A stretch of DNA of 64,000 nucleotides, from positions 64,001-128,000 of IMG/VR virus record IMGVR_UViG_3300031951_000017; one strand, given 5' to 3'. The first letter of the stretch is position 1; the number at the start of each line of letters is the position of its first letter. This document shows, piece after piece, positions 1 to 25,623 of the stretch. This DNA is from a virus. The notes beneath the pieces were generated by a model. That model was given only the letters and a program-made list of their open reading frames with translations, was not told the DNA's origin and did not search any database. The position numbers and the translations under genes are program-made.

Positions 1-105
1 ACCAAATCTTAAATTTTTTGGATTTTTTGCATTTTCAATGGCTGACTCTATGGTTGGGATTAATTGTGGGTCTCTATAAGACGCAATTTGGATAAAAATT
101 TTCAT
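1..105 (-). CDS. GT60-like GlcNAc transferase (Gnt1 / Skp1-hydroxyproline GlcNAc-transferase family), N-terminus only; runs off the window edge
   Basis: Not in the ORF track. Manual translation from ATG at 105 gives MKIFIQIASYRDPQLIPTIESAIENAKNPKNLRFG. The IFxQIASYRDP...A.nP..L.fG start is characteristic of GT60. Confidence 0.7.
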   Translation of the reverse strand, partial: MKIFIQIASYRDPQLIPTIESAIENAKNPKNLRFG

Positions 106-149
106 AAAATTATTCTTTTATGAATAAAATTAAAAACTAATTGTTAAAA

Positions 150-650
150 TTAAAGACATTTTGGACATTCTTCTGAAATTGTTCCACTCACAATTTGATA
201 CTGATTTTCAGTCACTAAGAATGTGGAATAACCTGGTAAATTTTGATTTAAAACTGATTCTATATACATACAACAACCATCTATTGTAAGTATCATTGGT
301 GGGGTTATTTCTTGGTAAGTTATAAAATTAAAGTAATACCCTCCACTACTATTATTTAAGAAATTTTCACACAATTGTGGGTCACAGACCTCACAACTCT
401 TTGCTACGGTAAAATAGTTGAATGTTGGTGGCTCCGTTGTTGTTGTGGTTGTTTCAGGTATAATTAATTGACAATTTTGACCTTGGTTTATAAAGTACAA
501 ATCGTAGGTTCCTTCGTAATTTTCAACGTCAAATGTGTAAGGAATTATATGCGAACCTAAATCAATAGAACCACCACTTAAAGGATAAAATGTAATGTTT
601 GCAACATCTCCTGAAAAAATTTGACTCTTTAATGTTATAACTGTTCCCAT
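150..650 (-). CDS. Small virion-associated protein: shared N-terminal beta domain, poly-Thr linker, Cys-rich domain
   Basis: N-terminal ~65 aa are paralogous to 1986..2855 (FSGDVANITFYPL.GGSID.GS.IIPY); TTTTTT linker. Confidence 0.6.
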   Translation of the reverse strand: MGTVITLKSQIFSGDVANITFYPLSGGSIDLGSHIIPYTFDVENYEGTYDLYFINQGQNCQLIIPETTTTTTEPPTFNYFTVAKSCEVCDPQLCENFLNNSSGGYYFNFITYQEITPPMILTIDGCCMYIESVLNQNLPGYSTFLVTENQYQIVSGTISEECPKCL

Positions 651-663
651 TTTACTTTATAAA

Positions 664-1983
664 TTATTTACTAATTATTACACCTGTTGCAATATAATTA
701 GACCCATCTCTTATTGTTATATTCCCACTATCCAAAACTTGAGGGGACCTACTAGCGGTTTCATCGTATATCAATATTCCATCCTCGTCTAATTGTGACG
801 TGACACTTTCACCTGTGACCATATTTACTATAATTCTAACCACATCTTTATCCGTAACCATAAATGAACCACTACGACTAACATTCGTATTAACAACTTC
901 TAACCCATTTTTTAATATTCTATAAGTATTTAACTCGGAACCTCCAGCGTCGTCAAATGACCAATTAAAATTATCTGTGGGTGGTAATGTTTCCATTGTT
1001 GCCGTAGGTGTAGGAGTTAATTCAGGTAATGTTGATGATGGTGTCAAAGTTGGAGTTTCTGTTAAGGTAGGCGTATTGGTAGGTGTTAAAGTTGGTGTAC
1101 TAGTTGGAGTTTCAGTTAAAGTAGGTGTGTTTGTTGGCGTCTCCGTTAATGTTGGTGTGTTAGTAGGTGTACTAGTTGGGGTTTCAGTTAAAGTAGGGGT
1201 ATTTGTTGGAGTATTAGTAGGTGTACTAGTTGGGGTTAGTGTGGGGGTCTCAGTTAATGTCTGAGTCAAAGTAGGTGTATTGGTTGGAGTTGAGGAATTT
1301 GTTAAAGTTAGTGTAGGTGTCGGTGGTGGGGTAAAGATGGTGTCGGCAGTAAAATTAAAACCTATCTCAATATTCTGAGGTGAGAATTGTAAATTTGTAA
1401 ATTCTGAAGTATCATTTAAATTATAATAATCGTAATCGACTACAATAAGTGTACTTCCTGATAAATCGCCAGCTTGTATTGTAACTCCCGAACTAATAAT
1501 TAGACTATCACCAGATAATGTGCCTAACACATGTTGGAATGATACTGATAAATCAAAATCTAGTGGTTCAGTTGTTACTAGGGTATATTCGGCATTTACA
1601 GACCCAGGGCTAATAGTTGAGGTAAAGATTACTTCAGTATTCTGAGGTACAAAATTTAAGTCATAACTTATATCGCAAATATTAAGTATTGTTGTGGTAG
1701 TTGTAGTAATTGGTTCAAAAGTAGTTGTGGTTGTTACAGGAATAAAAGTGGTTGTTGTAGTTGTTGATGGTAAGACATTAATAATACAGGTTTTATAAAA
1801 TCTAATATAGTAAAAAGTATATTTACCATAAACCGATAAATTAGGTTCAATATCGTCACCATAAAAGGTAAAGGGGACTACTTGTTCACCCAAATCATAA
1901 ACAGACCCGTTTAAAGACTCAAACGTAACTTGTGCAGTTTGTCCACTATAGTTTGTATCGAAAAATTCAACGTATTGTGACAT
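664..1983 (-). CDS. Mucin-like Thr/Pro-rich putative virion protein
   Basis: Diverged copy of the shared N-domain, poly-T runs, a long TPT repeat, and an internal domain shared with 6658..10530. Confidence 0.65.
   Translation of the reverse strand: MSQYVEFFDTNYSGQTAQVTFESLNGSVYDLGEQVVPFTFYGDDIEPNLSVYGKYTFYYIRFYKTCIINVLPSTTTTTTFIPVTTTTTFEPITTTTTTILNICDISYDLNFVPQNTEVIFTSTISPGSVNAEYTLVTTEPLDFDLSVSFQHVLGTLSGDSLIISSGVTIQAGDLSGSTLIVVDYDYYNLNDTSEFTNLQFSPQNIEIGFNFTADTIFTPPPTPTLTLTNSSTPTNTPTLTQTLTETPTLTPTSTPTNTPTNTPTLTETPTSTPTNTPTLTETPTNTPTLTETPTSTPTLTPTNTPTLTETPTLTPSSTLPELTPTPTATMETLPPTDNFNWSFDDAGGSELNTYRILKNGLEVVNTNVSRSGSFMVTDKDVVRIIVNMVTGESVTSQLDEDGILIYDETASRSPQVLDSGNITIRDGSNYIATGVIISK
990..1330 (-). 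repeat. Coding TPT(L/N/S)T tandem repeat (mucin-like stalk)
   Basis: Repeated TPTLTETPTNTPT units in the translation. Confidence 0.85.
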
Positions 1984-1985
1984 AG

Positions 1986-2855
1986 TTAAAAATTATTTTC
2001 TGTGGCCAAACAAATTTCACCATTCATTTTTATTAATCTCTCCATATCTGTAAATGAGATATAGGCATTACCTTGTAATCCCCATCCCCTTCCCCAACTA
2101 TTCTTTATTCTAAATAGTCTTTTTCTAGTATCAATTCCATTAATAACATAGGCGTGTCCACCAACAATAGGTCCTCCAATACGAATATTACCATTTCTAT
2201 CAGGATAAAACATATTTCTATACCAATATGTCCCAGCAACTACGGGCCCAACATTTAATACGGTGTTAATTAGTGTGTTAATGTCAAATGCCCAATAGTA
2301 GTTTTTAATTCGGTTTGTTTGTTGTAAATACTTGGCACCAGCCCTAACAGATGTACCATCATAATTTTCTCCAGGCCACTCGTCAATCTTTTGAGACTCC
2401 TTATAAATTAATGTTGGGTGTACAATAGGTGGAGTACCTCCGTGTTTTACGGGACCATCCTCAATCCAATGTGCCCAAGAATATCCAACACATTGTGGTG
2501 TAATTCCTTGGTTTCCCCACCATTCATTTTGTTCCCAGTACCTAGATATGATTGGACTCTTATTAATTGTTATTTTATCTTTAATTAAGTAATTCTTATC
2601 TCTATTATCAATTGATATTCCCCTACCTAAACCAAACACTAACTCTGTAAGTCCTGATGGTGAAACAAAAACCTCACAACTTTGACTTTGAGCTGTAAAA
2701 TTAAGGTTATATGTTCCTTCGTAGTAATCCGTAACATAAACATAGGGGATTATTTGTGAACCAATATCAATACTACCACCCGTTAATGGGTAGAATGTGA
2801 TATTAGCAACATCACCTGAAAAATTATCACTTTTTAAAATTACTACTGACGGCAT
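1986..2855 (-). CDS. Papain-like (C1) cysteine peptidase fused to the shared N-terminal domain
   Basis: NQG..PQCVGYSW (oxyanion Gln and catalytic Cys), GGHAY (His), IKNSWG..WG (Asn). Confidence 0.85.
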   Translation of the reverse strand: MPSVVILKSDNFSGDVANITFYPLTGGSIDIGSQIIPYVYVTDYYEGTYNLNFTAQSQSCEVFVSPSGLTELVFGLGRGISIDNRDKNYLIKDKITINKSPIISRYWEQNEWWGNQGITPQCVGYSWAHWIEDGPVKHGGTPPIVHPTLIYKESQKIDEWPGENYDGTSVRAGAKYLQQTNRIKNYYWAFDINTLINTVLNVGPVVAGTYWYRNMFYPDRNGNIRIGGPIVGGHAYVINGIDTRKRLFRIKNSWGRGWGLQGNAYISFTDMERLIKMNGEICLATENNF

Positions 2856-2882
2856 TTAAAAATAAATATCCAAATAAATGAT

Positions 2883-3512
2883 TTATACCCTTTGGAAATA
2901 CTTATATATTCTTTGACTTAATCTAATTCTTGGGTCATTTTCATTTCTACCTAGGGTTTTGTAGGGGAGGATAAACCCAAAACTTAAAAACACTCTTCGT
3001 GATTTAAATTCATTAGTCCAATGTTTGTAAAGAGATGCTTCAAAACAATATAAATCGGTTTCAGATATATTAAGTACGTCTTCTCCGATGAAAATTTGAT
3101 AGTCTTCGGATAAGACACTAATATTACATTTATAATTAATATATCCGTCTATTGATGCATCATAATGGGGGGTTATCTTACCACCTGAGTCCATATCAAC
3201 AACTTGTAAAAATATATTGTCTGCTGGGATTTCTAAAGTTTCAGATAATCTGCCAATAATGGACTCAATAAAATCAGGAACTTTAATTTTTAAAACCTGA
3301 CTGACAGACTGAAAGTTTGTGATATAGTTTGTGTAACTATTATTTGAAATATCTATAATAGTAGATTTACCATTTAAATCTTTTGTGATTTCAGATAAGT
3401 GGTGATTTGGATTACCTTTATCCGATTCTAATGAATTTACCCATTCTAAAATTTTTATAACTTCTTCTTTAGTTATAAAATTTCGTATCACCTTATGATT
3501 TTCAATCCCCAT
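2883..3512 (-). CDS. 2OG-Fe(II) oxygenase superfamily protein
   Basis: HxD (PHYD), distal His (YKHW), RVFLSFG. Confidence 0.75.
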   Translation of the reverse strand: MGIENHKVIRNFITKEEVIKILEWVNSLESDKGNPNHHLSEITKDLNGKSTIIDISNNSYTNYITNFQSVSQVLKIKVPDFIESIIGRLSETLEIPADNIFLQVVDMDSGGKITPHYDASIDGYINYKCNISVLSEDYQIFIGEDVLNISETDLYCFEASLYKHWTNEFKSRRVFLSFGFILPYKTLGRNENDPRIRLSQRIYKYFQRV

Positions 3513-3736: not shown

Positions 3737-3765
3737 AATATTATTTAATTGTTTTAAATTAATTA

Positions 3766-4418: not shown

Positions 4419-6620
4419 TTATTCTGTTATGTTTGTTATATTTAGGACATCATTTGAGTCGTAGTATGATAATCTTTGTCCGCCACCTGCCCTTGTAAAG
4501 ATTTCGCAATTATAAAATCCGTAGACGTGAGTTGATTCTGAAAAATCAATAGATATTACACTATTACATATTCTATTCATTTGGAAATAATCTACAACAA
4601 TGTTATTAGTAAAATTATCTCCAATAGTATTATCATAAAAATATTCTCCGATGTTATTATCATAGAAATTATTACCAATCACATTTCCTCTATATGAACC
4701 TCCGCCAAAACCAAAACCATCTAGAACTTCGTTACTATAAAAATTAGTACCTATTGTGTTATATGAAAATGAACCATAACAATTATTAAATTCAAAATAA
4801 TCTCCGATATTGTTACTGATTGTTTGTCCACTCATATTATTCACGAAGAAACTATAACCAACATTATTATAACCAAATTCGGCAAATGTTTGGTTTGCTT
4901 TAAAATTTGTTTTAATATGATTACTCCAAAAATCCCCCTGAATGTTATTACCCTTGAATTCATTCATAATTTGATTGTTTTCAAAGGTAAGATTTAAATT
5001 GTCTGAATCTCCGATTGTGTTACCTTCAAACCCATTTAATATTGAGTTTTTATATATGTTTGAATATATATTATTATTATAAAAATCATTTAAAATATTG
5101 TTACTTTGGAAGTTATATCTAATTGTATTAGTTGCACAATCACTTCCAATACTATTCCCTACAAAATTGTATGACCCTATATTTGTACTAATACCAATCG
5201 TATTACCCCCAAAAACTTGACCGATATTATTTTCATAAAATTGGTTATATACAGTATTATTATTATAACCATTACCAATCAAATTACGATAATAGTTTGA
5301 ATAGCTTTTATTGTTGTTATAACCATTGCCGATGTCGTTATTATAAAAGTCATTATAGATTTTATTATTTGCAAATTGGTTACCTATTTCATTATTTTGA
5401 AAATCTCCATTAGTCCAAGTGTTATCTTCAAAGTTATTCCCAATATTGTTTCTATAAAAAGAACCACCAATTAAGACATTATAGTTAAAATCACTACCAA
5501 TTCTGTTATTATTAAAATTCGCAGTTATATAATTATTATTGAAGTTTTCCCCGATGATGTTTCCATCAAAATCATCATTTGTTGAGTTGTTATAAAAACT
5601 ATCACCTATTTGATTATTGTCACAATCGTCATTAAATGTGTTATTATATGACCTATTTCCTATTGTGTTGTTTGTGAATGAACCACTAATAAAAACGTTG
5701 TTTGCTAAAAGAAAATCTCCTGAGCCAAGCTCAATATATATATTTGAGTGGTTACCAATATAATTGTTAACTGCGGTTGTCTCATTAAATGTAGTATATT
5801 CGAAAACCTCATTCACCCTTATATTAGGTTGATAGTAACTCATAACACCATCATCATAGGCCGTGTAATATGATGAATTACTAGTCTCATTTATTGTAAC
5901 ACCTGAAATAGTTGCCAAAGAATTACTATTAACTAATATGACTTCAAAAATTCGAGGGTTTAGATTACCTATCGCAACAAACGAACCTGTTGAAAAATTT
6001 GAACTAAATGTTGTTCCTGTATTACCGTATAATACTCCTGTGTTCCCTGTTATACCACTTATTCCAACGAGTCCACTAAGTGGTTCAGATTCATAATACG
6101 AATATCCAATATACCTTTTAAATAATATATTTCTGTGGTCATAATCAGTTCTATTACTAAAATTATCAATTCTTTCAGTGATTCTACCTTTCGCGGGACT
6201 ATTGCTAATTTCAGTTATGTTCCAAGAAATGTCGTATGTTATTTTATCTTTAGGGTGTAGTGTTGAGTGTACTGTCGGTGAGAATCCTGTTATTGAAGTT
6301 GCTAATAATAAAATTGGTTCGGTGTCACCTGTCATATAGTTATCCGAAAATATAGGACTACGAAGATTATCGTAGTTTGGTTGGTCATAACAAGTTTGGA
6401 AATCTGTCATTAAGTAAAATTGACCAGGTGTTAACGTCCCTCCGGTGTATAAAGAATACAACTCATTATAAGTGATTTCAGTGTAAGTTGTTATACCAGA
6501 AAATAAACTTTCTTTTGTTATTTTATATGTTTCAGTTTGAGCTGAATTATTTAATATAAGCCAAGTATTATCTGTTGACCCTGTAAATTCTGGTAATTGC
6601 GAAATTTTTATATTAGCCAT
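4419..6620 (-). CDS. Putative tail fibre/spike with a long Asn-rich beta-helix repeat
   Basis: MANIKISQLP N-terminus and many IG(N/D)xFxNN repeats; TATTTAT motif upstream. Confidence 0.65.
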   Translation of the reverse strand: MANIKISQLPEFTGSTDNTWLILNNSAQTETYKITKESLFSGITTYTEITYNELYSLYTGGTLTPGQFYLMTDFQTCYDQPNYDNLRSPIFSDNYMTGDTEPILLLATSITGFSPTVHSTLHPKDKITYDISWNITEISNSPAKGRITERIDNFSNRTDYDHRNILFKRYIGYSYYESEPLSGLVGISGITGNTGVLYGNTGTTFSSNFSTGSFVAIGNLNPRIFEVILVNSNSLATISGVTINETSNSSYYTAYDDGVMSYYQPNIRVNEVFEYTTFNETTAVNNYIGNHSNIYIELGSGDFLLANNVFISGSFTNNTIGNRSYNNTFNDDCDNNQIGDSFYNNSTNDDFDGNIIGENFNNNYITANFNNNRIGSDFNYNVLIGGSFYRNNIGNNFEDNTWTNGDFQNNEIGNQFANNKIYNDFYNNDIGNGYNNNKSYSNYYRNLIGNGYNNNTVYNQFYENNIGQVFGGNTIGISTNIGSYNFVGNSIGSDCATNTIRYNFQSNNILNDFYNNNIYSNIYKNSILNGFEGNTIGDSDNLNLTFENNQIMNEFKGNNIQGDFWSNHIKTNFKANQTFAEFGYNNVGYSFFVNNMSGQTISNNIGDYFEFNNCYGSFSYNTIGTNFYSNEVLDGFGFGGGSYRGNVIGNNFYDNNIGEYFYDNTIGDNFTNNIVVDYFQMNRICNSVISIDFSESTHVYGFYNCEIFTRAGGGQRLSYYDSNDVLNITNITE

Positions 6621-6657
6621 TTTTAATTTTATCTATAAATACTTTTATTTTTTTCAT

Positions 6658-9600
6658 TTAACAAGGTCCTGTGAATGTTAATGGGAATTGACAATCAAAC
6701 GCAACCCCACCACCTGCACCTGTAAATACATAAGTATATGTGCCATCCGATGAAACAATTCCTACAAAACTAGTTGACCCATTATTATCTGTTATAGTAT
6801 CATTTACTTGTATTTGTAAAGTTTCTGAAGTTTGTGTTAGTACAAGTTGATTTGTATTAATAGTTGTACCGCCATTCCATAAGGTTGGAATCACAATATT
6901 ACGTTGACAATTTGGTGTTAAAGTTAGTGTTGGTGTTGGGGATGGTGTTGGAGTTGGTGAACTTGGTGGTGCTGATGGCCAAGATTTAACGTTTGTCAGT
7001 AAAACCTGTATTTTTGCGGTCTGTGATGATGATACCGTTTCAAACCAAGAAGCCCCATTGTTTGTTGTTGCCCACCCAAAGGTGTCAGGAACCGCATTCG
7101 GGTAAGCTGGTGACAAGAAGTTTAAAACTGGGTATAAGTTAGTAGATGCTGGCGCCGCTTCAACACCGCTAGGTCTTTTTCTAACGTAGAACATAGTCAT
7201 ACCACCAATTACATTTGGTGAATTTCCCATATAAGTCGGAGTACCAGTGTGATATGTCGTCGTATATCCAAGTTGGACTTGACCATTTTGATTCCAAGAC
7301 TCTGCAACAAATCCTACAACGTAATAACCTGTAGGTATCGTGAGAGGGGTACTAGCGTCGATTGTTCCAAAAGTCGTAGTATCATATCCAGTTGCAACTG
7401 CTCTTGTGTTTACTTGTTCGTCAGTATTACCAATTTTAACCACACCATCAACATTACCAAAAATATCATTATATTCTTGTTGCGTAATAATTACCCAATC
7501 ATTATCTGTTGCATTTTGATAACTTACTAAACTTGTTGTTAATTGGTCTTCTAACGCATCATAATTTGGGTCGACTACATACGATGGGGCTAAATTAGCT
7601 CCAGAATCTAAAAATACTGATACTGTTGTTGATTGTTCATTTGATAAAAAAGATGCACCATACACATTCCACCCTGTAAACATATAACCTGGTGATGGTA
7701 CTGCCTGTATATTATATGAGACATTCTTTTCAACACTAACTTCAGTTTGTTCAGTATAAGTTACACCATCAAATATTATTGATAAACCACCACTTAATGG
7801 TTGGATGTACAACGTTAGGGGTACTAATGGTACTACTGAAGTTGTTGGTGTCATAGTCTGTGTTGGTGTTGGTGTGGATGTAGGTGTTGAGGACTGGGTG
7901 AGTGTCGGTGTTAATGTTGGAGTAGATGTGGGTGTAGGTGTTGGTGTTGGTGTGGATGTGAGTGTAGGTGTTGGTGTTTGACTAGATGTAAGTGTGGGTG
8001 TAGGTGTTGGTAAACAAAGGTCTAATTCTGTGATTATATAACTACCATTTTCTGCAATAATAAAATCATCGTTTTCAGTTAGAAGATATTGATTACAAGG
8101 GTTAAGATTAAAGATTGTTTCCGAAGATAGTGAGATTACTAAATCAACCCAATATGGTGACCATTTAACATCAACAAATTCTGACGTATCATTCAATATA
8201 TTATAATCCTCTTGACGTATTACAATAGTTTCACCACTTAATAAACCTTTTGGTACCACAACACCTGATTCAATATTTATACTATCTCCACTAATAGTCC
8301 CTAAAATATGTGTGAATGTAACCGACAAATCAAAATCTAAAGTGTTACTTAATTGTAGAGAATACACTGCTTCAATTGAACCTGGATATAGATTAGCAAT
8401 TAATATTACCTCAGCATCTAATGGTATATTATAAAGTTCATAGTTTACATCGCAAGGTATAATTGTAGTTGTTGTTGTAGTTACAGGTATCGTAGTTGTT
8501 GTTGTAGTTACAGGTATCGTGGTGGTTGTGGTTGTAATTTCATAAACTATTGCTGACAAATCACACTCAGGGACAATAACCTCACAATCGGGACAATCCC
8601 AATCAAACAAATTATACCTACCCTTATTTAATTTAAAATTATGTTTAACTTCGTCAGACGTTAAAGGTTTTACATAGTAATTAAATTGTGATATACCCCC
8701 ATCAAACGTACCTGCAAAGTATTTTTCTAATACTATATTTGTCGATAGTCCTGATAATGTAGTTCCACTTAAAACTGAATCAGGGAATAATTCAGGGTCT
8801 TGTTGGTATTGATAACCTAAATACGATGATGTTGTTGTCGTTGTTGAGTAATCTATTGTTGTAGTCGTGGTAACATCACCTGAAATTGGACATTCAATAA
8901 ATGTTAAATTTTCTCTCAGTCCTTGTGTACCACCACCCCAAGATATGTTAAACGGAACCCCTATTTGTTTTTCCCTCTCAACGTTCAAAGCTCTAGGTAT
9001 GACCTCTTCAAAATTTTCAAATGTGTGAAATTTACGTCCATTTACGTAGATTTTTAATCTACCTAATCTATAATCTTTTTCTTTTAACCACTTATCATTT
9101 AATTCAACAACCTCTCTACCATACGGAGTTTCAATTGTTGTTACATTATATGTTGTAGTTGTTGATGTGTATGTTGTGGTATAATAGTGAGTATATGGTG
9201 GTTGAATTAATGTGACAGATTGATTGTAAGTGGATGCGGTATAAACAAAATTAGTAATGTCCCCTAATCCGCCATACCAATACAAATGACATTCGTCCAT
9301 TGCACGATATCTCTCAAATACAACATCGACTTGTACCCAATGTTCAAATTTAATATAGTCAGTATTTTCACAAAAATAATGTATTCCTTTTGGTGTACAA
9401 TACTCTTGGACCGTACAACCTGATGTATAAGTTTTTGTTCCTGTACATGCATCTACGGCACATTCATCGGTTAACCTTAAAACCCTAACACATATTTTTG
9501 GATTACCCGGGTCACCACTAAATTTAACCACAAAATTGTTTGAACATGAGTCTCCACTTGGGTTAAGTTCAGGTGCAGTTATTTCTACCGAACTACATGG

Positions 9601-10530: not shown

Positions 10531-10540
10531 AATTCTTATG

Positions 10541-10567
10541 ATAAATACTTTGGATTGAAGTATTTAT
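10541..10567. promoter_or_regulatory. Back-to-back divergent TATTTAT late-promoter motifs
   Basis: ATAAATACTT-N7-AAGTATTTAT inverted repeat between divergent genes starting at 10530 and 10589. Confidence 0.6.
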
Positions 10568-10588
10568 TAGTAAAAACAAACTATCAAA

Positions 10589-13254: not shown

Positions 13255-14475
13255 ATGACAGAAAAGATTAATGTTTTAGTAGCCCCATCAGACAAAACAG
13301 GAGTAGGTAAATTCCGCTCTGTAGACCCTCACATCGCATTACAACGACTTTATCCTGAAGATTTTCATGTTGATATTGTTTACGATTTTAATTTTGCGGA
13401 TATCAATTTTTGGAAAAAGTATCAGATAGTACATTTCCATCGTAGTATTGGTCACGATTTTGACCAAGCGGTCAATCTAATTAAAATGCTTAAAAGTTTA
13501 GGTATTATAATGGTTATGGATTTAGATGATTATTGGTTACCAACTAAAGAACATCCACTTCATTCTTTGATTTTACAAAACAAAATGAATGAAAAAATAG
13601 TTAATAATCTAAAAGTTGCTGACTATGTGATAACTACAACTGAAATGTTTGCTAATGAAATTAGAAAAATTAACAAAAATGTTGTTGTTATACCAAATTC
13701 TATAGACCCTAGTGAACCACAATTTCAATATGAAAAAACTGAAAGTGATTTATTACGTATTGGTTGGTTAGGAGGTTCTTCACATCTACATGATTTAATG
13801 TTGTTAGATGGTACATTTAATAAATTACGTTCAGATAGAAACAAGTTTCAAACATATTTGGCAGGATTTGACACTAGGGGTACAGTCACAGAAATTAATC
13901 GTGATAATGGACAACAAACACAACGTCCAATTAAACCTCATGAGACTGTTTGGTATCAGTATGAAAAAATAATGACTGACAATTATCATGGACTAGACAC
14001 AAATTATGTAAATTTTCTAATGAAATTTAAGGAAGAACCATATCCCAATATGGACAATCAACAATACGTTAGAGTTTGGACTAGACCTGTTAATGCATAC
14101 GCCGCTAACTATAAAAGATTTGATGTTTCGTTGGCACCAATTAAAAATCATATCTTTAATAGAGTTAAATCACAATTAAAGGTTATTGAGGCGGGATTTC
14201 ATAAAAAAGCATTGATTGCGTCAAATGTGGGTCCGTACACAATCGATTTGAAACATTGTTTAGATAAAGGTAATTTTGTATCGGGTGCTAATGCTTTTTT
14301 AGTTGATGAGAATAAGAACCATTCAGACTGGTCAAAATACATTAAAAAATTAATCGATAATCCAAACTTGGTTACCGATTTGGGAGAATCTTTGTATGAA
14401 ACAGTTAAAGATACTTACCATATTGATACAACAACTAAATTTAGAAGTGAATTTTATAAATCTTTAGTAAAATGA
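13255..14475 (+). CDS. GT-B fold glycosyltransferase (GT4-like)
   Basis: MDLDD, IGWLGGSSH, DVSLAP...FN..KS.LKVIEAG...IASNVGPY. Confidence 0.8.
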   Translation: MTEKINVLVAPSDKTGVGKFRSVDPHIALQRLYPEDFHVDIVYDFNFADINFWKKYQIVHFHRSIGHDFDQAVNLIKMLKSLGIIMVMDLDDYWLPTKEHPLHSLILQNKMNEKIVNNLKVADYVITTTEMFANEIRKINKNVVVIPNSIDPSEPQFQYEKTESDLLRIGWLGGSSHLHDLMLLDGTFNKLRSDRNKFQTYLAGFDTRGTVTEINRDNGQQTQRPIKPHETVWYQYEKIMTDNYHGLDTNYVNFLMKFKEEPYPNMDNQQYVRVWTRPVNAYAANYKRFDVSLAPIKNHIFNRVKSQLKVIEAGFHKKALIASNVGPYTIDLKHCLDKGNFVSGANAFLVDENKNHSDWSKYIKKLIDNPNLVTDLGESLYETVKDTYHIDTTTKFRSEFYKSLVK

Positions 14476-15780: not shown

Positions 15781-16434
15781 ATGTATTTAAAACAACCCTA
15801 TAAAATTTTTTATGATACAAAAAAGTATCCTTTCAAAGAAATTGTAAAAGAAATATTAGAAATTAACAATTCTGAATTTGATTTATCCGAACTTCATAAA
15901 ATCGAGAAGTATGATTTATTAGTTCGTGAAAAAGACCAATCAACTAAATGGCATAAAAAGTATTACGAAAAGTTTGAATCTAAATTTAAACCTGTTTATC
16001 TAGAACTAGTCACAGAACTAAAAGAAAGATATGGGTATTCTTCAATAGTATACCAACAAATCCCAACATTTAGAGTTCAATTAGGTGATGGTAATTTAGG
16101 TGTTGGTGAATGGCATAAAGATAAAACATATAATCATGGCAGTGATGAACTTAATTTTTGGATGCCGTTTGTAGACACTAATGACCTAAATTGTGTATGG
16201 TTTGAGTCTGAGGAAGATAAAGGTGATTTTAGACCATATAATGTAAATTATGGGGAAATTTTAGTTTTTGATGGTGCAAACTTAAATCATGGGAATCAAA
16301 AAAACGATAGTGATTTCACTAGAGTTTCAGTTGATTTTAGATTAGTTGACCCAAATAAATTCAAACCAAACCAAGAAGGGTCGATTAATATGAAAACTAA
16401 ATTTGACATCGGCGGATATTTTGAAAAACTATAA
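15781..16434 (+). CDS. 2OG-Fe(II) oxygenase (StrG/PhyH-like)
   Basis: WHKD..YNH, NFWMP, HGN..N, TRVSVDFR. Confidence 0.75.
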   Translation: MYLKQPYKIFYDTKKYPFKEIVKEILEINNSEFDLSELHKIEKYDLLVREKDQSTKWHKKYYEKFESKFKPVYLELVTELKERYGYSSIVYQQIPTFRVQLGDGNLGVGEWHKDKTYNHGSDELNFWMPFVDTNDLNCVWFESEEDKGDFRPYNVNYGEILVFDGANLNHGNQKNDSDFTRVSVDFRLVDPNKFKPNQEGSINMKTKFDIGGYFEKL

Positions 16435-16436
16435 AT

Positions 16437-17948
16437 ATGATAACAATAATTTACTCAACTCATAAGGATGAGAACTACAATTCCAAGTTTAAATCTCATC
16501 TAATAAAGAGTGTTGGACTAAAAAATGTTCAGATACTAGAATACGTAAACCATAACGAATTTCCTTTATCAATTGTATATAATAAAGGAATTTCTGAAGC
16601 CAAATATGACATTATTGTTTGTTGTCATAATGATATTAAACTTGAAAGTGGTTGGGGTAAAAAACTTCTAAAAGACTTTTCTAAAAATCCTGAATTTGGG
16701 ATTATAGGTAAAGCTGGGTCTTGTTATTTTCCAAGTTCAGGTGTGTACTGGGAAAAAATGAATCAAACGATGGTTGGTCAGGTATATCACGAACCAAAGG
16801 GACAAAAAAAATGGTTAAGTAAGTACTCAAATAAATTTGAATTTTTAATGCCCGTTGTAACAATTGATGGTTTATTTATATCTTTCAATAGGAATAAAAT
16901 TAAACATCTTTTTGATGAAAGTATTCCAGGTTTTCATTTTTACGACCATGCTTTTTGTCTACCTAACTATTTAGATAATGTTAAAATAGGTGTAACAACA
17001 TCTTTTGATATTACCCATGAATCCGTGGGTATGGTAGGTGATGATTTTCATGTAACTAAATTAATATTTTTAAAGAAATACGGAGTTCATTTACCACAAG
17101 ATTTAAAACCAAATGAGTTTGTTTGTGAAAAAACCACACCAAAAAAAATTAAAACAAATGATAAAGTTGCAATAATCATACCGACAAAAGGATTAACTAG
17201 CATGCTATTTCAATGTTTAGACTCTTTTTATGAACATTGTCACTCAGATAATTTTCACATTTTTATTGGTGACACAGGGTCAACACCAAAAGAGTTAGAC
17301 GAAATTGAATCCTACATTAACAATAAAAATAATATAACATTAATTAAATACGATTGGTATCAGTACTCAAAAACAAATAACACGATAGTTAAAGATAACA
17401 TTAGTAATGAGTATACATATCTGTTATTTTGTAATAACGATATAAAGATAATGAACGATGTTATTTACAAAATGTCTGAGGTTTTTAGAACTAATACTAA
17501 AACTGGAACTGTTGGATGTAGATTATATTTTGAGGACAATACGTTACAACATAATTCAATGATTATTTACCACAGAAAGGATATGAACCTGTTCATCCCA
17601 ACGCATGAATTTTTTGGCAGTTACTACCGTAGTACAACTGGAAAAAAGAATTGTTTGGGTAATACTGCGGCTTTGATGATGATTAAAAAGAAAACATTTG
17701 ATTTATTAGGTGGTTTTGATGAGAACTATTTGTATCACTTTGAGGATGTAGATTTGAATCTAAAATGTAAAATGATAGGTTTGACAAATATTTTTGAAGG
17801 TACTGCGGTAGCTTATCATTATGAATCAATGTCTAAGAAAGTTGAGGGTAAGAGGGAGGATTTAGAAAAGAAAGACACATTTTTATTAAATAAAAAAATA
17901 AATGAGAATTTAAAATTATTACAAAATGACATTTTAGTCTTACAATAA
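16437..17948 (+). CDS. Two-domain GT-A (GT2-like) glycosyltransferase
   Basis: CHNDI, DGLF and FHFYD in domain 1; IIIPT, GDTGS, CNND and GGFDE..FEDVD in domain 2. Confidence 0.85.
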   Translation: MITIIYSTHKDENYNSKFKSHLIKSVGLKNVQILEYVNHNEFPLSIVYNKGISEAKYDIIVCCHNDIKLESGWGKKLLKDFSKNPEFGIIGKAGSCYFPSSGVYWEKMNQTMVGQVYHEPKGQKKWLSKYSNKFEFLMPVVTIDGLFISFNRNKIKHLFDESIPGFHFYDHAFCLPNYLDNVKIGVTTSFDITHESVGMVGDDFHVTKLIFLKKYGVHLPQDLKPNEFVCEKTTPKKIKTNDKVAIIIPTKGLTSMLFQCLDSFYEHCHSDNFHIFIGDTGSTPKELDEIESYINNKNNITLIKYDWYQYSKTNNTIVKDNISNEYTYLLFCNNDIKIMNDVIYKMSEVFRTNTKTGTVGCRLYFEDNTLQHNSMIIYHRKDMNLFIPTHEFFGSYYRSTTGKKNCLGNTAALMMIKKKTFDLLGGFDENYLYHFEDVDLNLKCKMIGLTNIFEGTAVAYHYESMSKKVEGKREDLEKKDTFLLNKKINENLKLLQNDILVLQ

Positions 17949-17993
17949 TAATTTTTTATATACAAAAAATTTAATAAACATATATTTTAAAAT

Positions 17994-18734
17994 ATGAGTA
18001 AAAAAATAGGTACTTTTATTTTTGTACACGACCAAGAAATTGTCCTAGACTTTATTAATTGTGAAAAATTTCAAGTCTTTGAAAATCTTACATTTGTATT
18101 TGTTGGTAATAAAGACACTTCAAAAATTGAAAATATTAGTAATGTTGTGATTTGTAAAAACCTCGTATATAATATTGAGGAATATCCTAAACTTACTTCG
18201 TATACTGGGTGGTATGCCATATGGAAAAATGAATTATATAAAGAATATGACTACTTAAATTTATTTGAGTATGACGTAAATATTTTAGAAAATTTTAATG
18301 AATCTCAGTCAGAAGTATTAGAATCAGGGTTGGTTGGGTATATACCATTATCAATTAATAATTCATCATACATAAGAGTTAAAAAATGGAGTGAGGAAAT
18401 AATCCTCTCAATTAAAGAAAAATACGATACGGATATTTACAAACTTGTAGATAATTTAGATAAAAATTTCAATTGTTCTATAACATCCAACCATACATTT
18501 AGTAAAATTAATTTTGAAAATTATATGTTGTGGGTTGAGCCCCTAGTTGAGGACATAAAAGATTTAGAGATGGCAGGACACCAAATTGAAAGGTCAATAA
18601 GTTTTTTCTATTTAGTTAACAACATCGAATTTAAAATTCTTCCTTATGTTTTAAAACATTTTCAATTCGATAGTCATAAAACACAAGGTATTAGTCAAGA
18701 AAAATTTAACACAAATTACAAAAAATTATTATGA
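17994..18734 (+). CDS. Putative glycosyltransferase-like protein
   Basis: FEYD, GHQIER; glyco-cluster context. Confidence 0.5.
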   Translation: MSKKIGTFIFVHDQEIVLDFINCEKFQVFENLTFVFVGNKDTSKIENISNVVICKNLVYNIEEYPKLTSYTGWYAIWKNELYKEYDYLNLFEYDVNILENFNESQSEVLESGLVGYIPLSINNSSYIRVKKWSEEIILSIKEKYDTDIYKLVDNLDKNFNCSITSNHTFSKINFENYMLWVEPLVEDIKDLEMAGHQIERSISFFYLVNNIEFKILPYVLKHFQFDSHKTQGISQEKFNTNYKKLL

Positions 18735-19423
18735 TTAAATTTGATGATATAAAAGTAATTACGTTTGCAAAAGGTAATTTTTTGAATTCGCAGACTATTC
18801 TTTCGGAACATCTTAATAAATTAGGTATTAGTAATCAAATAAATCTTTCTGATAAAGATTTACCTGAGGATTTTAAACAAAAACACAAACTTTTTTTTAA
18901 CGAAATACGTGGCTATGGTTATTGGATTTGGAAACCATTTATTATTTTAAATGAAATTTTTAAATTATCTAATAATGAGATTTTGGTGTACATAGACTCT
19001 ACTGATTTACCCAAACTACCTTTTTTTGAGTTTTTACAAACACATTTTATAACTGAAGATATTTTACTTACAAATCGTGGTTACAAAAATGGAGAGTGGA
19101 CTAAAAGAGATTGTTTCATTAGTATGAATTGTGATAGTGAAAAATATCATAATGCGATACAATTAGAGGCCGGATTAATGGCGTTTAAAAAAAATGATTT
19201 ATGTATTAATCTCCTATCAGAATGGTTTGAATTTATGCAAAACAAACAAATAGTTGACGATAGTCCAAATACTTTAGGATTTCCAAATCTTACAAATTTT
19301 AAAGAACATAGACATGACCAAAGTATATTAACAAATCTAAGTATTAGTAAAAATATAAAAAACTTCAACATTGGGAGTGAATATGTAAATTTTAATTTTA
19401 ATCAACCAAGAATATATATATGA
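18731..19423 (+). CDS. Putative GT-A glycosyltransferase / nucleotide-diphospho-sugar transferase
   Basis: GYGYWIWKP, YIDS, HRHDQS motifs. Confidence 0.7.
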   Translation: MIKFDDIKVITFAKGNFLNSQTILSEHLNKLGISNQINLSDKDLPEDFKQKHKLFFNEIRGYGYWIWKPFIILNEIFKLSNNEILVYIDSTDLPKLPFFEFLQTHFITEDILLTNRGYKNGEWTKRDCFISMNCDSEKYHNAIQLEAGLMAFKKNDLCINLLSEWFEFMQNKQIVDDSPNTLGFPNLTNFKEHRHDQSILTNLSISKNIKNFNIGSEYVNFNFNQPRIYI

Positions 19424-20067
19424 AAAACTTATTATCAAATATAAACCCTCAGACAATAATCGAGGATGAGTTCATTAAAAATCTACTTAATTTTGAAGAT
19501 GTCTTTAAAGAAATACTAAGTGTATGTAACAATAAATTTAGTTTTGGTACTGGTAGTTACTTGTTTGACGGTACAAAATACGAGTATTGTGATAAAATGT
19601 TTCAAAAACAAGTTCTACTTTATGAAAAAGTCAAAAATATTAATAGTGTATGTGAAATAGGTACTTACATGGGACATTCACTATTAATAATGCTGATATC
19701 TAATCCTAGACTAAGGATTACGTCTATTGACATTGATGATACCTTTAGTTTACCTGCCATTAAATTATTAGAAAAAAAATTTAATACAAATATAAATTTT
19801 ATAAAAGGAAGTAGTTTAGACGTACTCCCCAATCTCCAAGAAAAATTTGACTTATTTCATATTGATGGGACACACAAATTAGATTTTGTAACAAAAGAAT
19901 TTGAAATGTGTAAGAATCTTACTTCATCAGATGAAATTAATGTTATATTTGATGATTATGACACAATATCTGAAATGAAAAATCTTATTCTTAAAAAACA
20001 TACTATTTTAGAACAGGTAGTCCCAAATTGTAATTGGAGAAATTCTTATTTAAAAATAAAATTATAA
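19420..20067 (+). CDS. Class I SAM-dependent methyltransferase (Methyltransf_24-like)
   Basis: EIGTYMGHS, FDLFHIDGTH, IFDD. Confidence 0.85.
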   Translation: MKNLLSNINPQTIIEDEFIKNLLNFEDVFKEILSVCNNKFSFGTGSYLFDGTKYEYCDKMFQKQVLLYEKVKNINSVCEIGTYMGHSLLIMLISNPRLRITSIDIDDTFSLPAIKLLEKKFNTNINFIKGSSLDVLPNLQEKFDLFHIDGTHKLDFVTKEFEMCKNLTSSDEINVIFDDYDTISEMKNLILKKHTILEQVVPNCNWRNSYLKIKL

Positions 20068-20077
20068 AGATAAAATT

Positions 20078-20695
20078 ATGAAAACAGAATTATGTGAAAT
20101 AATGACTAGACATGGTAGTGATAAAGGACATGGGGTGCATAACTACACTATTTTTTATTATGAATTATTTAAAGACATCAAAGATAAAAAAATGAATATT
20201 TTTGAGCTAGGTTTAGGTACAAATAACACAGATATTCCATCTAATATGGGTAGTTCTGGAAAACCTGGAGCTTCTTTGAGGGGGTGGAAAGAATTTTTTA
20301 CAAACTCAATGGTTTATGGGGCGGATGTTGATAAAAGAATATTATTTAATGAGGATAGAATAATTACGTTTTATTGCGACCAAAAAAATCCATTAGAAAT
20401 AAAAAATATGTGGGAAAGTGAGATACTTAATAACTTATCATTTGATATTATTATTGAGGATGGTTTACACGAATTTGATGCTAATTTAATTTTTTTAGAA
20501 AATTCACTTCATAAATTAACAAATGATGGTGTTTATATATGTGAAGATTTAAAACCAAATACAATTGAGTTATTTGAAAAAGAAATACCACTTTTAGAAA
20601 AAAAATACCCTGATTGTAAATTTGAATTGAAAAAATTAGAAAATTCCCTGAATGTATATAACGACAATAATATATTAGTTATTAAAAAATTTTAA
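20078..20695 (+). CDS. SAM-dependent (sugar O-)methyltransferase
   Basis: GSDK..HNY, ELGLG, GASLRGW, FDIIIEDGLH, GVYICED. Confidence 0.8.
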   Translation: MKTELCEIMTRHGSDKGHGVHNYTIFYYELFKDIKDKKMNIFELGLGTNNTDIPSNMGSSGKPGASLRGWKEFFTNSMVYGADVDKRILFNEDRIITFYCDQKNPLEIKNMWESEILNNLSFDIIIEDGLHEFDANLIFLENSLHKLTNDGVYICEDLKPNTIELFEKEIPLLEKKYPDCKFELKKLENSLNVYNDNNILVIKKF

Positions 20696-22952: not shown

Positions 22953-22953
22953 A

Positions 22954-24018
22954 ATGGACGAATTACAATTAAAAAAATTAGAAGAATCTATTAAAAATCT
23001 CGAAGAAAAAACATCGAGAATCTATTTGATGGTACAAGATACCAAAGGTAACCCTAAAGCCTCAGTAAGGTACATGTATCAAATGGGTATGGCTCTTAAA
23101 AACGGAGGGTTTAACATCATTATTCTTCATGAAAAAAATGACTATATTGGTGTTGGTGAGTGGTTAGGTGAGGAATATATGTCACTACCTCATAAATCTA
23201 TCGAATCAAAGAACTTGGAGGTTGCACCTGAGGACTTCATCATTATCCCAGAGATTTATGCATTTGTTATGGAACAAGTCGTTAAATTACCTTGTGCTAA
23301 AATAGTTCTATGTCAGGCATACGACCATATGTTAGAGACATTGAAACCTGGTATGAGTTGGCCACAATACGGATTTTACAAGTGTATCACAACTAGTGAG
23401 TTTCAAAAAGAGTATATTAGTAGTGTGATGAGAAATGTTTCATTCGATATAATTGAACCTTACATTTCTAATACTTTCACTAAAAATACAACACCGCCAA
23501 ATCCGATTATTGCAGTTCACACCCGTGACCAAAGAAAGACGATGAACATTATTAAATCTTTTTATTTGAAATTCCCACAATATCGTTGGGTGACGTTTAG
23601 AGATTTAAGAGGCGTTTCTGAACAAACATTTTCAGAATACTTGAGAGAATCATTTCTTTCAGTTTGGGTAGATGAGACAAGTGGTTATGGTACATTCCCA
23701 TTAGAGTCTATGAAATCTAACGTATTGTGCTTAGGGAAAACACCTAATTTAGTACCTACTTGGATGAATGAAAATAATGGTATTTGGATTACTAACGAAA
23801 ACTTGATAATTGACTATATCGCTGATTTGTTACAAAATTGGTTGGAGGATAATATTAGTCCTGAGATTTATGAAAAAATGGACGAGACAATTAACTCACT
23901 ACCAACTGAAGAAAGTTTCAATACACAAGTAATAGCTACATTTAGTGAATACTTTGTTAACCGAATTTCAGGATTTAAGTCACAATTAGATAAAATGAAA
24001 ACACAAGAACAAGAATAA
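22954..24018 (+). CDS. GT-B-like glycosyltransferase
   Basis: IIIPE; SGYGTFPLESM (E-motif-like). Confidence 0.65.
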   Translation: MDELQLKKLEESIKNLEEKTSRIYLMVQDTKGNPKASVRYMYQMGMALKNGGFNIIILHEKNDYIGVGEWLGEEYMSLPHKSIESKNLEVAPEDFIIIPEIYAFVMEQVVKLPCAKIVLCQAYDHMLETLKPGMSWPQYGFYKCITTSEFQKEYISSVMRNVSFDIIEPYISNTFTKNTTPPNPIIAVHTRDQRKTMNIIKSFYLKFPQYRWVTFRDLRGVSEQTFSEYLRESFLSVWVDETSGYGTFPLESMKSNVLCLGKTPNLVPTWMNENNGIWITNENLIIDYIADLLQNWLEDNISPEIYEKMDETINSLPTEESFNTQVIATFSEYFVNRISGFKSQLDKMKTQEQE

Positions 24019-24019
24019 T

Positions 24020-24868
24020 ATGGAAAACAATGAAGAAGTAAAAATTGATGCCGAATACATTAAGGTTGAGGGTCAAATGGATTTAACGGTAGTATTACCA
24101 ATTAAAACTATATCAGCTAAAAGATTTGATGAATTATTTGATGCTGCGATTAAATCTGTAAGAAATCAATTAGTTTCTTGTAGTGAATTAATTATAGTTC
24201 ATACCGATGAAACACCCCTTGTTGAATTTTTAAAGTCTTATGACTTTTTAAATTTAAATGTACGATTATTGGAATGGGTAAATGAACCTAATTTTGCCGA
24301 ACAAGTTAATTATGGTGTTAATAAAGCGGAAACTAAGTGGATTTCAATTCTAGAATTCGATGATGAATATTCATCCATTTGGTTCAAAAACGCTAAAAAA
24401 TATTCTGAAATTTACACCGATGTGGATATTTTCTTACCAATTGTTGTGGATATTGACGATAAAGGTGTGTTTGCTGGATTTACAAACGAAGCAACATTTG
24501 CAGCAAATTTCTCACAAGAAATTGGAATTTTAACAAATGATACCTTACAACAATATCAAAACTTCCAAAGTTCAGGTATGGTCTTTAAAAAGTCTTTGTT
24601 TGAAAAATTTGGTGGTGTTAAAAGTAACATTAAATTAACATTTATTTATGAAATGTTTTTAAGATATACACATAATTCTGTGAAAATTATGACTATCCCT
24701 AGAATAGGTTACAAACACGCTAATATGAGAGAAGGTTCAATTTTTTGGCAACATAAGTTTGGTACAGAAAAACTTTCAGAAAATGAAGTTAGATTTTGGA
24801 TTCAAACTGCAAAACAAGAGTACTTCTTCACAGAGGAGAGAGCTATAAATTATGAACAGGTTAATTAA
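24020..24868 (+). CDS. GT2-like glycosyltransferase
   Basis: LTVVLP, N.G...A...W..ILEFDD. Confidence 0.75.
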   Translation: MENNEEVKIDAEYIKVEGQMDLTVVLPIKTISAKRFDELFDAAIKSVRNQLVSCSELIIVHTDETPLVEFLKSYDFLNLNVRLLEWVNEPNFAEQVNYGVNKAETKWISILEFDDEYSSIWFKNAKKYSEIYTDVDIFLPIVVDIDDKGVFAGFTNEATFAANFSQEIGILTNDTLQQYQNFQSSGMVFKKSLFEKFGGVKSNIKLTFIYEMFLRYTHNSVKIMTIPRIGYKHANMREGSIFWQHKFGTEKLSENEVRFWIQTAKQEYFFTEERAINYEQVN

Positions 24869-25623
24869 TGACACAATCCGCAACAACTTTAGTTAGCGGT
24901 AATCAAAAGGCAGATAACGATAAAAAAGTAAAAAAAGTTAAGTCAGATAATTACTTTGATGTTAGAGAGGAATCTGCAGTAAGGATGTTTTTATTAACTG
25001 ATTGTGTAATTGAAAGAAATCAAATATACAATCAGTTTTTAAGAGCTCCGTTAGATAAGATGATATCTTCAATTATAAGAAGATATAAACTATACCGAAA
25101 AGACATGGATTTTGTCGAAATTCACGCAGATACCCATTCTTTTTTGATGACAAAAATTGATAAGTTTAGACCTTCTGAAAATAAGAAAGCTTACTCTTAC
25201 TTTGGTACTATATGTAAAAATTACCTTATGGGTCAAATTATTAAAGACCAGAAGGAGATGAATAGGAAAATATCTTATGAGGACATTTCTTCCGATTTAG
25301 AAGAAAGTAATAGTTTTTCATATAGGATTGATGAGGAAGAAATTGAAACTGACGTATTATTATTAAAATTTGTAACTCAACTCCGCGAATATATAGAAAC
25401 AGAACCATTAACTGAGAACGAAATCAAATTAGGTGACGCCCTAGTTGATTTGTTTGAGAATCATAATTTAATTTTTTCATCCGCGGATAATAATAAATTT
25501 AATAAAAATGTAATTTTATTATCTTTAAGGGAAATGACCAACTTATCTACTAAGGAAATTAGAATATCTCTGAAAAAATTTAAAAAACTTTACGTAGGTA
25601 TAGTTAACGAAGTTTATAAATAA
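24868..25623 (+). CDS. gp55-like late-transcription sigma factor
   Basis: Sigma region-2-like KIDKFRP...KAYSYFGTICKNYL, resembling T4 gp55. Confidence 0.65.
   Translation: MTQSATTLVSGNQKADNDKKVKKVKSDNYFDVREESAVRMFLLTDCVIERNQIYNQFLRAPLDKMISSIIRRYKLYRKDMDFVEIHADTHSFLMTKIDKFRPSENKKAYSYFGTICKNYLMGQIIKDQKEMNRKISYEDISSDLEESNSFSYRIDEEEIETDVLLLKFVTQLREYIETEPLTENEIKLGDALVDLFENHNLIFSSADNNKFNKNVILLSLREMTNLSTKEIRISLKKFKKLYVGIVNEVYK

Follow-up and report, generated by a model that had tools for sequence, protein, structure and literature searches.

We analysed a stretch of viral DNA of 64,000 nucleotides (the window), which corresponds to bases 64001-128000 of the IMG/VR virus record IMGVR_UViG_3300031951_000017 (163,928 bp, GC content ~30%). 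The window starts within a gene for a glycosyltransferase (GT) related to family GT60, located in the same minus-strand run as several open reading frames (ORFs) with poly-Thr and Thr-Pro (TP) tracts. In our best-supported reading, which we consider probable, the phage encodes a soluble, cytoplasmic machinery for mucin-type O-glycosylation of its own virion proteins. An initial annotation of this DNA had proposed that a GT60-type enzyme initiates glycans on the phage's own Thr/TP tracts and that these glycans are then extended and methylated. This outline agrees with our comparative analyses of fold, gene module, co-occurrence, bacterial relatives and the staining of XacN1 virions, but the proposed hydroxylation route and the inventory of transferases did not hold up, and the idea that the islands at 13-25 kb and 60-66 kb supply one common pathway is unsupported.

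The GT60-like enzyme

Positions 1-105 of the window (minus strand) contain the first 35 codons of a gene for a GT60-like polypeptide N-acetylhexosamine (HexNAc)-transferase, the rest of which lies beyond the window. The full ORF encodes 416 residues (record positions 62855-64105; L006:8455-9705, minus strand) and matches the Pfam profile PF11397 'GlcNAc' (GT60) with 245.3 bits at a cut-off of 21, covering profile positions 2-43 and 95-350 of 352. The GT60-like gene start suspected from these few codons is thus genuine. Four elements, D92-x-H94, G203-E-E205, H229 and W240, are invariant in 69 phage homologues and also in 32 homologues drawn from phages and bacteria, and the DxH motif of our phage enzyme reads D92-S-H94. 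Its DSH and GEE motifs are the probable equivalents of two GT27 motifs, the Mn-binding DSH and the Gal/GalNAc-T motif. A search of the PDB with the protein sequence returned no match at E ≤ 1. We inspected an AlphaFold model (pLDDT 94.9) with Foldseek, and found that approximately the top 30 PDB matches are all GT27 polypeptide N-acetylgalactosamine (GalNAc)-transferases (E ~1e-10), with wall-teichoic-acid GT2 enzymes ranking only below them. The profile and structure searches recommended for the full ORF thus returned the GT60 family and a GT27-like fold. GT60 enzymes are polypeptide α-N-acetylglucosamine (GlcNAc)-transferases that target Thr residues of Trypanosoma cruzi mucins and hydroxyproline (Hyp) of Skp1, and reviews describe the family as the GlcNAc counterpart of GT27 (PMC8724618, PMC6939170). 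Judged by its modelled fold and its metal-binding motif, the phage protein is kin to the eukaryotic GalNAc/GlcNAc-transferases that initiate mucin glycans. Its putative activity is α-linked GlcNAc transfer from UDP-GlcNAc to Thr or Hyp, for which adjacency to and co-occurrence with TP-rich ORFs provide indirect support. No transmembrane segment is predicted in any glycosyl- or methyltransferase of the phage, the GT60-like protein included.

A conserved GT60-HtrL core with a hypervariable cassette

Downstream of the GT60-like gene we find, in this order, an 809-residue fusion of a GT34 domain with a methyltransferase, a 346-residue ORF, a 558-residue HtrL/YibB-like protein, a 134-residue ORF and PolB. 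The small 134-residue ORF corresponds in relatives to the N terminus of a TP-rich protein. The N-terminal ~260 residues of the HtrL-like protein match Pfam PF09612 with 60.5 bits (cut-off 24.1), whereas its C-terminal ~300 residues have no family assignment. Its score of 60 bits against NCBIfam TIGR02192 is far below the equivalog cut-off of 264.9, and we therefore regard it as a relative of HtrL/YibB rather than as an equivalog.

We compared this arrangement with 59 related viral loci, 50 of which contain an HtrL-like homologue no more than 9 kb from GT60. In some of them the pair is directly adjacent; in others as many as ten small ORFs intervene, and the gap is then filled by a hypervariable glycosyl-/methyltransferase cassette. 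Together with the adjacent downstream ORFs, the cassettes comprise 291 ORFs that fall into 121 clusters at 40% identity. A cassette holds up to nine transferases and methyltransferases, and the families assigned to these 291 ORFs include FkbM and other methyltransferases, GT10, GT25, GT7, PLOD-type GT, GT2, UDP-galactopyranose mutase, carbamoyltransferase and sugar epimerase. The pattern is that of a conserved GT60-HtrL core joined to a hypervariable extension cassette, and resembles an O-antigen locus.

GT60 genes co-occur with Thr/TP tracts in phages

ORFs with extreme Thr/TP content accompany GT60 at a distance of no more than 9 kb in 46 of the 59 loci, and the gene order varies among at least six arrangements. 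Thr accounts for up to 0.35 of the residues in these neighbors, and TP[TS] triplets number up to 382. Four complete GT60-positive genomes without a nearby tract have TP ORFs elsewhere. Among cultured phages, the GT60-positive jumbo phages XacN1, Xoo-sp13 and RAS14 contain 12-17 TP tracts per genome, some of them in large ORFs that neighbor the sheath gene, and also carry the HtrL-like partner (42% identity). When whole genomes are compared, TP tracts are present in seven of seven GT60-positive phages vs none of the five nearest GT60-negative cultured relatives. For the reverse comparison we used 39 viral records with a length of 30 kb or more, picked solely by a (TP)7-coding DNA pattern. PF11397 is encoded by nine of these 39, and by six of the nine that are 90 kb or longer, compared with 4 of 50,697 cultured phage records. 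The co-occurrence of GT60 with TP-repeat genes, which had been suggested as a check, is thus seen in both directions.

Experimental data have been published for the cultured phage XacN1. At least two protein bands from its virions stain positive with periodate-Schiff, for which the authors suggested the phage's own transferases ORF328 and ORF334 as the cause (PMC5852040). We find that ORF334 is the GT60 homologue, with 49% identity to our phage enzyme, and that ORF330 is the HtrL-like partner. A carbamoyltransferase is encoded between ORF330 and ORF334, and the XacN1 module is located near PolB and RNase H.

Candidate acceptor proteins

The initial annotation had described ORFs 150, 664 and 6658 as Thr- and TP-repeat virion proteins. 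Their shared strand and their poly-Thr/TP tracts are as reported, but the virion assignment itself is a prediction, and we treat the three proteins as candidate acceptors. ORF 150 (150..650, minus strand) encodes 166 residues, with a 65-residue N-terminal module, a TTTTTT run and a Cys-rich C-terminal part. In the 439-residue product of ORF 664 (664..1983, minus strand), globular modules alternate with three poly-Thr runs (residues 65-101) and a 129-residue TP repeat (residues 210-338). Thr makes up 0.22 of this protein, vs ~0.06 typical for the genome, and we count 20 TP[TS] triplets; its DNA contains tandem repeats of 24-30 nt. ORF 1986 (1986..2855, minus strand; TATTTAT at -13) combines, in 289 residues, the shared N-terminal module with a papain-like (C1) peptidase domain, which matches phrog_16701 'peptidase' at 2.5e-57 and, weakly, Pfam Peptidase_C1. 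The N-terminal module of ~65 residues is 57% identical between ORFs 150 and 1986, and is recognizable by eye in ORF 664. The same module on three adjacent genes with unlike C-terminal bodies looks like a common attachment domain for interchangeable virion appendages. ORF 6658 (6658..10530, minus strand; TATTTAT at -17) leads the minus-strand run and encodes a multi-module protein of 1290 residues with six poly-Thr runs and two TP linkers, a candidate virion fiber. It shares a 115-residue module with ORF 664 (40% identity), has homologues at the same position in 19 related loci, and its N-terminal part resembles LamG/ConA-like Atlas clusters, which we consider a weak lead. Between these genes, ORF 4419 (4419..6620, minus strand; TATTTAT at -21) encodes a 733-residue Asn-rich repeat protein that is fiber- or spike-like by composition and that matched no family in Pfam and PHROG searches.

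The further Thr/TP tracts reported for ORFs 29719 and 40564 are indeed found in both. ORF 29719 (29719..31281, plus strand; 520 residues) has two poly-Thr runs (residues 70-97) and a late-like motif upstream. ORF 40564 (40564..42918, minus strand) encodes a portal-adjacent protein of 784 residues without a family match, in which a 295-residue N-terminal domain is followed by four Cys-rich modules of ~60 residues (approximately six Cys each), split by long TP linkers. With a Thr fraction of 0.22 and 33 TP[TS] triplets, it is another candidate acceptor. Beyond the window, the tail sheath, a bona fide virion protein, carries a TP tract within its insertion domain, and a few other large ORFs of the record contain TP tracts as well. 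The major capsid protein (34679-36541) contains a single TP[TS] triplet and lacks poly-Thr runs. The tracts run counter to the AT-rich composition of the genome and are partly encoded by 18-30-nt tandem repeats. Pfam and PHROG searches returned no family for most TP-rich ORFs, and matches to phrog_15511 span the repeat only. A 319-residue ORF beyond the window (record positions 147371-148330, window coordinates 83371-84330) contains a TTGTEG/TTGTAG repeat and a Thr run, with two late-like motifs upstream.

A candidate late promoter element

The motif TATTTAT is present within 60 nt upstream of 47 of the 154 ORFs of the record, at distances of 10-40 nt and at approximately 8 times the expectation from base composition (example sites in the window are 6621-6657, 10531-10588 and 44736-44772). 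It precedes the sheath, portal, terminase and scaffold-like genes and ORFs 6658, 4419, 1986 and 29719. Because it marks structural genes, TATTTAT is a candidate late promoter element. In relatives it lies upstream of 22 of 63 TP-rich ORFs (35%) vs 95 of 775 ORFs overall, an approximately 3-fold enrichment by which the TP proteins look like late, structural genes. It precedes 4 of 50 GT60 genes (8%), none of 35 HtrL-like genes and 3 of 118 cassette genes. The T4 late motif TATAAATA was rejected as a late promoter: it is found within 60 nt upstream of just 9 of the 154 ORFs, with no identified structural gene among them. Scans with terminator and sigma-70 consensus sequences were at chance level and defined no operons; the terminator scan found none between the enzyme genes and the late genes upstream.

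Cellular counterparts of the GT60-HtrL module

We scanned one genome per prokaryotic species and found 429 GT60 relatives, of which 80 loci were kept. The HtrL-like partner is present in 31 of these. All 19 TP-rich ORFs in the set lie within three ORFs of the GT60(-HtrL) module, 15 of them within two (permutation p = 0.00035). One layout of these neighbors is an initial S/T-R-R-x-F-[LV]-[KR] motif and a hydrophobic stretch followed by a long TP/SP repeat. Such neighbors, which resemble substrates of the twin-arginine translocation (Tat) pathway, occur in Cytophagaceae (including Jiulongibacter sediminis), Saprospiraceae, Lewinellaceae, Verrucomicrobiota, Vicinamibacterales and Acidimicrobiaceae, and two of them end in a sorting domain of the type IX secretion system (T9SS). 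An NCBIfam scan of the bacterial TP proteins returned no Tat-signal family, and the Tat assignment therefore relies on the visible motifs. Two further loci encode a VgrG protein of the type VI secretion system (T6SS) with a very long C-terminal (TP)n tail, each three ORFs away from a GT60-like gene, on the chromosome of Ralstonia sp. 25C (L216:10267-13131) and in an Achromobacter metagenome-assembled genome (L228:13049-15520). In J. sediminis JN14-9 (contig5; L180, 5945-13148) the Tat-like TP-rich gene lies divergently to an operon that comprises GT60, a NodU-like carbamoyltransferase and the HtrL-like gene, the same trio as in phage XacN1. A GT60 protein from a Saprospiraceae contig that is otherwise unlike the phage shares 67% identity with the phage enzyme, which is consistent with a host among the Bacteroidota and with gene exchange between the two.

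The cytoplasm is where Tat substrates, VgrG spikes and virions fold or assemble, and there they may be within reach of a soluble transferase. We tentatively suggest, at somewhat less than even confidence, that the GT60-HtrL pair forms the core of a widespread and undescribed mucin-type O-glycosylation system in the cytoplasm of prokaryotes and phages. It would be dedicated to TP tracts of proteins that never cross membranes unfolded (Tat/T9SS substrates, VgrG and virion proteins), would draw its glycan diversity from the cassette, and would be kin to the eukaryotic GT27/GT60 machinery. Our literature searches turned up no report in which GT60 or PF11397 is connected with phages or with bacterial TP-repeat proteins.

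Other sugar-gene islands

The initial annotation had listed six to seven more GT-like genes at 13.2-24.9 kb, of which our searches support three. The first is a GT4-like glycosyltransferase (13255..14475, plus strand) that matches phrog_7162 at 4e-49 and, weakly, Pfam Glyco_transf_4, and that is syntenic in 10 related loci. The second, ORF 16437, contains two GT2-type domains and belongs to a strain-specific transferase/methyltransferase island of ~5 kb between dUTPase and PhoH (15781..20695, plus strand). This island also contains ORF 15781, ORFs 17994 and 18731 without assigned function, and ORFs 19420 and 20078, the two S-adenosylmethionine-dependent methyltransferases that had been noted in this region and that we recover. 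In relatives dUTPase adjoins PhoH, and most of the island genes have no homologue in those loci. ORF 15781 had been put forward as a second oxygenase, a possibility for which we obtained a weak match only (E = 0.06). The third is a GT2 glycosyltransferase (24020..24868, plus strand) with a PF00535 score of 24.8 bits, barely over the cut-off. Relaxed Pfam thresholds gave no transferase match for ORFs 17994, 18731, 21438, 22954 and 24868 or for the 346-residue ORF, which we did not count. The remaining ORFs of the region encode a PolB-like exonuclease, dUTPase and PhoH, or have no significant family.

A third sugar island (60278..64000, minus strand) comprises a nucleotide-sugar epimerase/dehydratase (60278), a GT2 protein of 661 residues and a further GT2 enzyme, with the GT2 genes at 61440 and 63422. 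Both GT2 genes are as previously described, but the gene called RmlB can be assigned at the family level only, as an NAD-dependent sugar epimerase/dehydratase. The island extends beyond the end of the window, where it holds genes for a methyltransferase, a rhamnosyltransferase-like protein and one more GT2 enzyme.

Phage lineage and further features of the record

The window encodes a T4-like major capsid protein, a portal (42921) and a large terminase; the tail sheath and a baseplate wedge protein are encoded elsewhere on the record. By capsid protein, the closest cultured relatives are Microcystis phage Mel-JY01, Flavobacterium phage immuto and Rhodothermus phage RM378 (36-43% identity), and a megablast of 12 kb against cultured phages gave no match. 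Close capsid relatives are present on at least 596 IMG/VR stretches. Protein matches to the GT60-like enzyme exceed 7,000, and the contigs that encode them reach 320 kb in length. The phage thus belongs to a lineage of large aquatic phages that is very common in metagenomes, and Bacteroidota are its likely hosts. We did not assign it to the published 'moraphages', because no HSP70 gene was found in the record.

An AAA+ unfoldase of the ClpC/ClpB type without the N-terminal domain (51962-53974, plus strand; 670 residues) scores 741 bits to ClpC in the PDB. In Cytophagaceae (L170, L206), homologues come immediately after the GT60-HtrL module, and in Burkholderiaceae (L204, L219, L237) they adjoin GT60-like genes. 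Two neighboring ORFs with DnaJ-type CXXCXGXG zinc-finger repeats (57890-59622, plus strand) lie where the GC skew of the window peaks (0.40). Within the head-module ORF 49114-50397, a 39-nt unit is repeated in tandem four times (49830-49985; 87% matches).

Proposed pathway and alternative explanations

From the observed gene families, motifs and synteny, the modelled fold, and the co-occurrence in phages and bacteria, we infer an acceptor, donor sugar, linkage, order of steps and biological role as follows. The GT60-like enzyme would place the first HexNAc directly on Thr residues of poly-Thr/TP tracts, in the cytoplasm and during synthesis and assembly of the structural proteins. Likely acceptors would be the insertion of the tail sheath, the fiber-like ORFs 150, 664 and 6658, ORF 29719 and the portal-adjacent ORF 40564. 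The HtrL/YibB-like partner may then extend and cap the glycan together with strain-specific transferases and methyltransferases, which in this phage would be the GT34-methyltransferase fusion and the 346-residue ORF. The virion stalks would as a result be glycan-coated, protease-resistant and antigenically variable.

Several points weigh against this pathway. Glycans on this phage, or on any TP tract, are predicted rather than observed, and the record covers only ~56% of the genome (CheckV). To our knowledge, no bacterial or phage member of PF11397 has ever been assayed. Thirty of the 39 records selected by the (TP)7 pattern lack GT60; many of them are fragments or small proviruses, but they document TP linkers without the enzyme. 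The phage co-occurrence counts are not independent events, because most GT60-positive phages share ancestry and synteny. GT60, HtrL-like and cassette genes rarely carry the late-like motif and adjoin PolB, and their timing may therefore differ from that of the structural genes. HtrL/YibB is named after a gene of the lipopolysaccharide (LPS)-core cluster of Escherichia coli, which presumably hints at a lipid-linked glycan. Finally, the Schiff-stained bands of XacN1 were never identified as specific proteins (PMC5852040).

The origin of the HtrL/YibB name is also among the arguments for remodeling of the host envelope, the strongest of the alternatives, which we nevertheless consider unlikely. 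Here, the transferases would act on lipid-linked intermediates of LPS, capsule or exopolysaccharide, masking receptors (superinfection exclusion) or altering the cell surface, and the TP tracts would be unmodified linkers. The three islands with their GT2, GT4, rhamnosyltransferase-like, epimerase/dehydratase and methyltransferase genes do resemble polysaccharide clusters, and soluble transferases are normal in O-antigen assembly. However, no protein encoded by the 164 kb is predicted to contain more than three membrane segments, and therefore none resembles a flippase, polymerase, ligase or polyprenyl-phosphate transferase, although host enzymes or the part of the genome missing from the record could supply these functions. 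The conserved core enzyme has the predicted fold of a polypeptide transferase, and the module tracks TP-rich ORFs rather than polytopic proteins: a protein with six or more membrane segments is encoded nearby in only 11 of the 80 bacterial loci.

It appears improbable that glycosylation proceeds through hydroxyproline in the way known for Skp1 in Dictyostelium and Toxoplasma, with ORF 2883 hydroxylating Pro residues of the TP tracts and the GT60-like enzyme adding GlcNAc to Hyp. ORF 2883 (2883..3512, minus strand; 209 residues) has the predicted fold of a 2-oxoglutarate (2OG)-Fe(II) oxygenase, in line with the initial annotation. It has no Pfam match, but its family of 62 members retains H116, D118, H164 and R173 of the HxD...H...R motif, and its confident model (pLDDT 92) shows a double-stranded β-helix. 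The enzyme sits between TP-rich genes in the same strand run, and Gnt1, the Skp1 transferase, belongs to GT60. Its matches by structure and, weakly, by sequence include prolyl hydroxylases; Foldseek returned 2OG oxygenases in which AlkB-type enzymes are mixed with PHD2/P4H-type enzymes and match the model equally well, and a search of the PDB with the family profile gave a single prolyl-hydroxylase match that is not significant (E = 0.27). Homologues of ORF 2883 are found within 10 kb of GT60 in 0 of the 59 related loci, and no oxygenase is present among the 25 most common cassette families. Because the oxygenase is not co-conserved with GT60, the prolyl-hydroxylation branch of the original proposal is without support; in addition, the pure poly-Thr runs contain no Pro.

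Glycosylation of modified bases in the phage DNA, which would evade restriction as in T-even and other phages, is very unlikely: the module adjoins PolB here and lies near PolB and RNase H in XacN1, and multi-sugar DNA glycosylation by viral transferases has precedent in work cited in PMC12619734, but the thymidylate-synthase family that includes the hydroxymethylase (PF00303) is absent from all four complete GT60-positive genomes and from this record, TET/JBP (PF12851) is unmatched in this record (the PF12851 control matched nowhere), cassettes with as many as nine transferases and methyltransferases go beyond known DNA glycans, and the modelled fold is nearest to polypeptide transferases.

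Implications and comparison with known systems

If glycosylation of virion proteins by the GT60-HtrL module is correct, large aquatic phages of an abundant lineage use enzymes of their own to coat their tail and fiber proteins with glycans, and the composition of this coat would be as variable as O-antigen. This would bear on virion stability, resistance to grazing and proteases, adsorption, host range and the behavior of phage particles within organic matter. The bacterial loci would represent a new class of cytoplasmic protein O-glycosylation tied to Tat/T9SS export and T6SS spikes, and the enzymes that start eukaryotic mucin glycans would have a prokaryotic relative. XacN1 and J. sediminis are in culture and mass spectra of XacN1 virions are public, which makes these predictions directly testable.

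We compared the proposed system to others for which protein glycosylation has been described. XacN1 shares with our phage the GT60 homologue and the HtrL-like partner, has TP tracts in large tail-module ORFs, and has Schiff-positive virion bands; the original report differs from our analysis in that the GT60 family, the partner gene and the TP tracts were not recognized and the glycoproteins not identified (PMC5852040). In mycobacteriophages, glycosylation of virions by phage enzymes is established according to Freeman et al. (2023), as cited in PMC12619734. From that account, phage transferases decorate virion proteins in the cytoplasm there as well, and the glycans are thought to shield the particle. 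They are placed at the C termini of capsid and tail-tube proteins, whereas in our phage the capsid lacks a Thr tract, the candidate acceptors are TP tracts of sheath, fiber-like and decoration-like proteins, and the initiating enzyme would be of the GT60 type.

The eukaryotic mucin initiators of GT60 and GT27 share with the phage system the PF11397 family, the GT-A fold, the DxH and GEE motifs, Thr-rich, Pro-containing likely acceptors and further extending transferases. They are type II membrane proteins of the Golgi, whereas the phage and bacterial enzyme is predicted to be soluble and cytoplasmic. The phage enzyme has a β-rich C-terminal domain of ~90 residues, and GT27 enzymes have a ricin-type lectin domain. 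The Skp1 pathway of Dictyostelium and Toxoplasma (PhyA and Gnt1) likewise uses a cytoplasmic GT60 enzyme followed by cytoplasmic transferases, and an oxygenase gene is found nearby in our phage. However, it modifies a single Hyp on one protein, whereas the phage has long tracts on many proteins and an oxygenase that is not co-conserved.

In the serine-rich-repeat adhesins of Gram-positive bacteria, GtfA/GtfB initiate glycosylation, variable transferases extend the glycan, and an accessory Sec system exports the product. The logic is similar, with cytoplasmic O-GlcNAc-type initiation on long repeats of hydroxy amino acids, strain-variable extension and export after modification. The components differ: the adhesin initiator is a GT4 enzyme with a GT-B fold and a chaperone-like partner, and the adhesins are exported by accessory Sec, whereas here a GT-A-type GT60 enzyme would act with an HtrL-like partner, and the neighbors of the bacterial GT60 counterparts look like Tat/T9SS or T6SS substrates.

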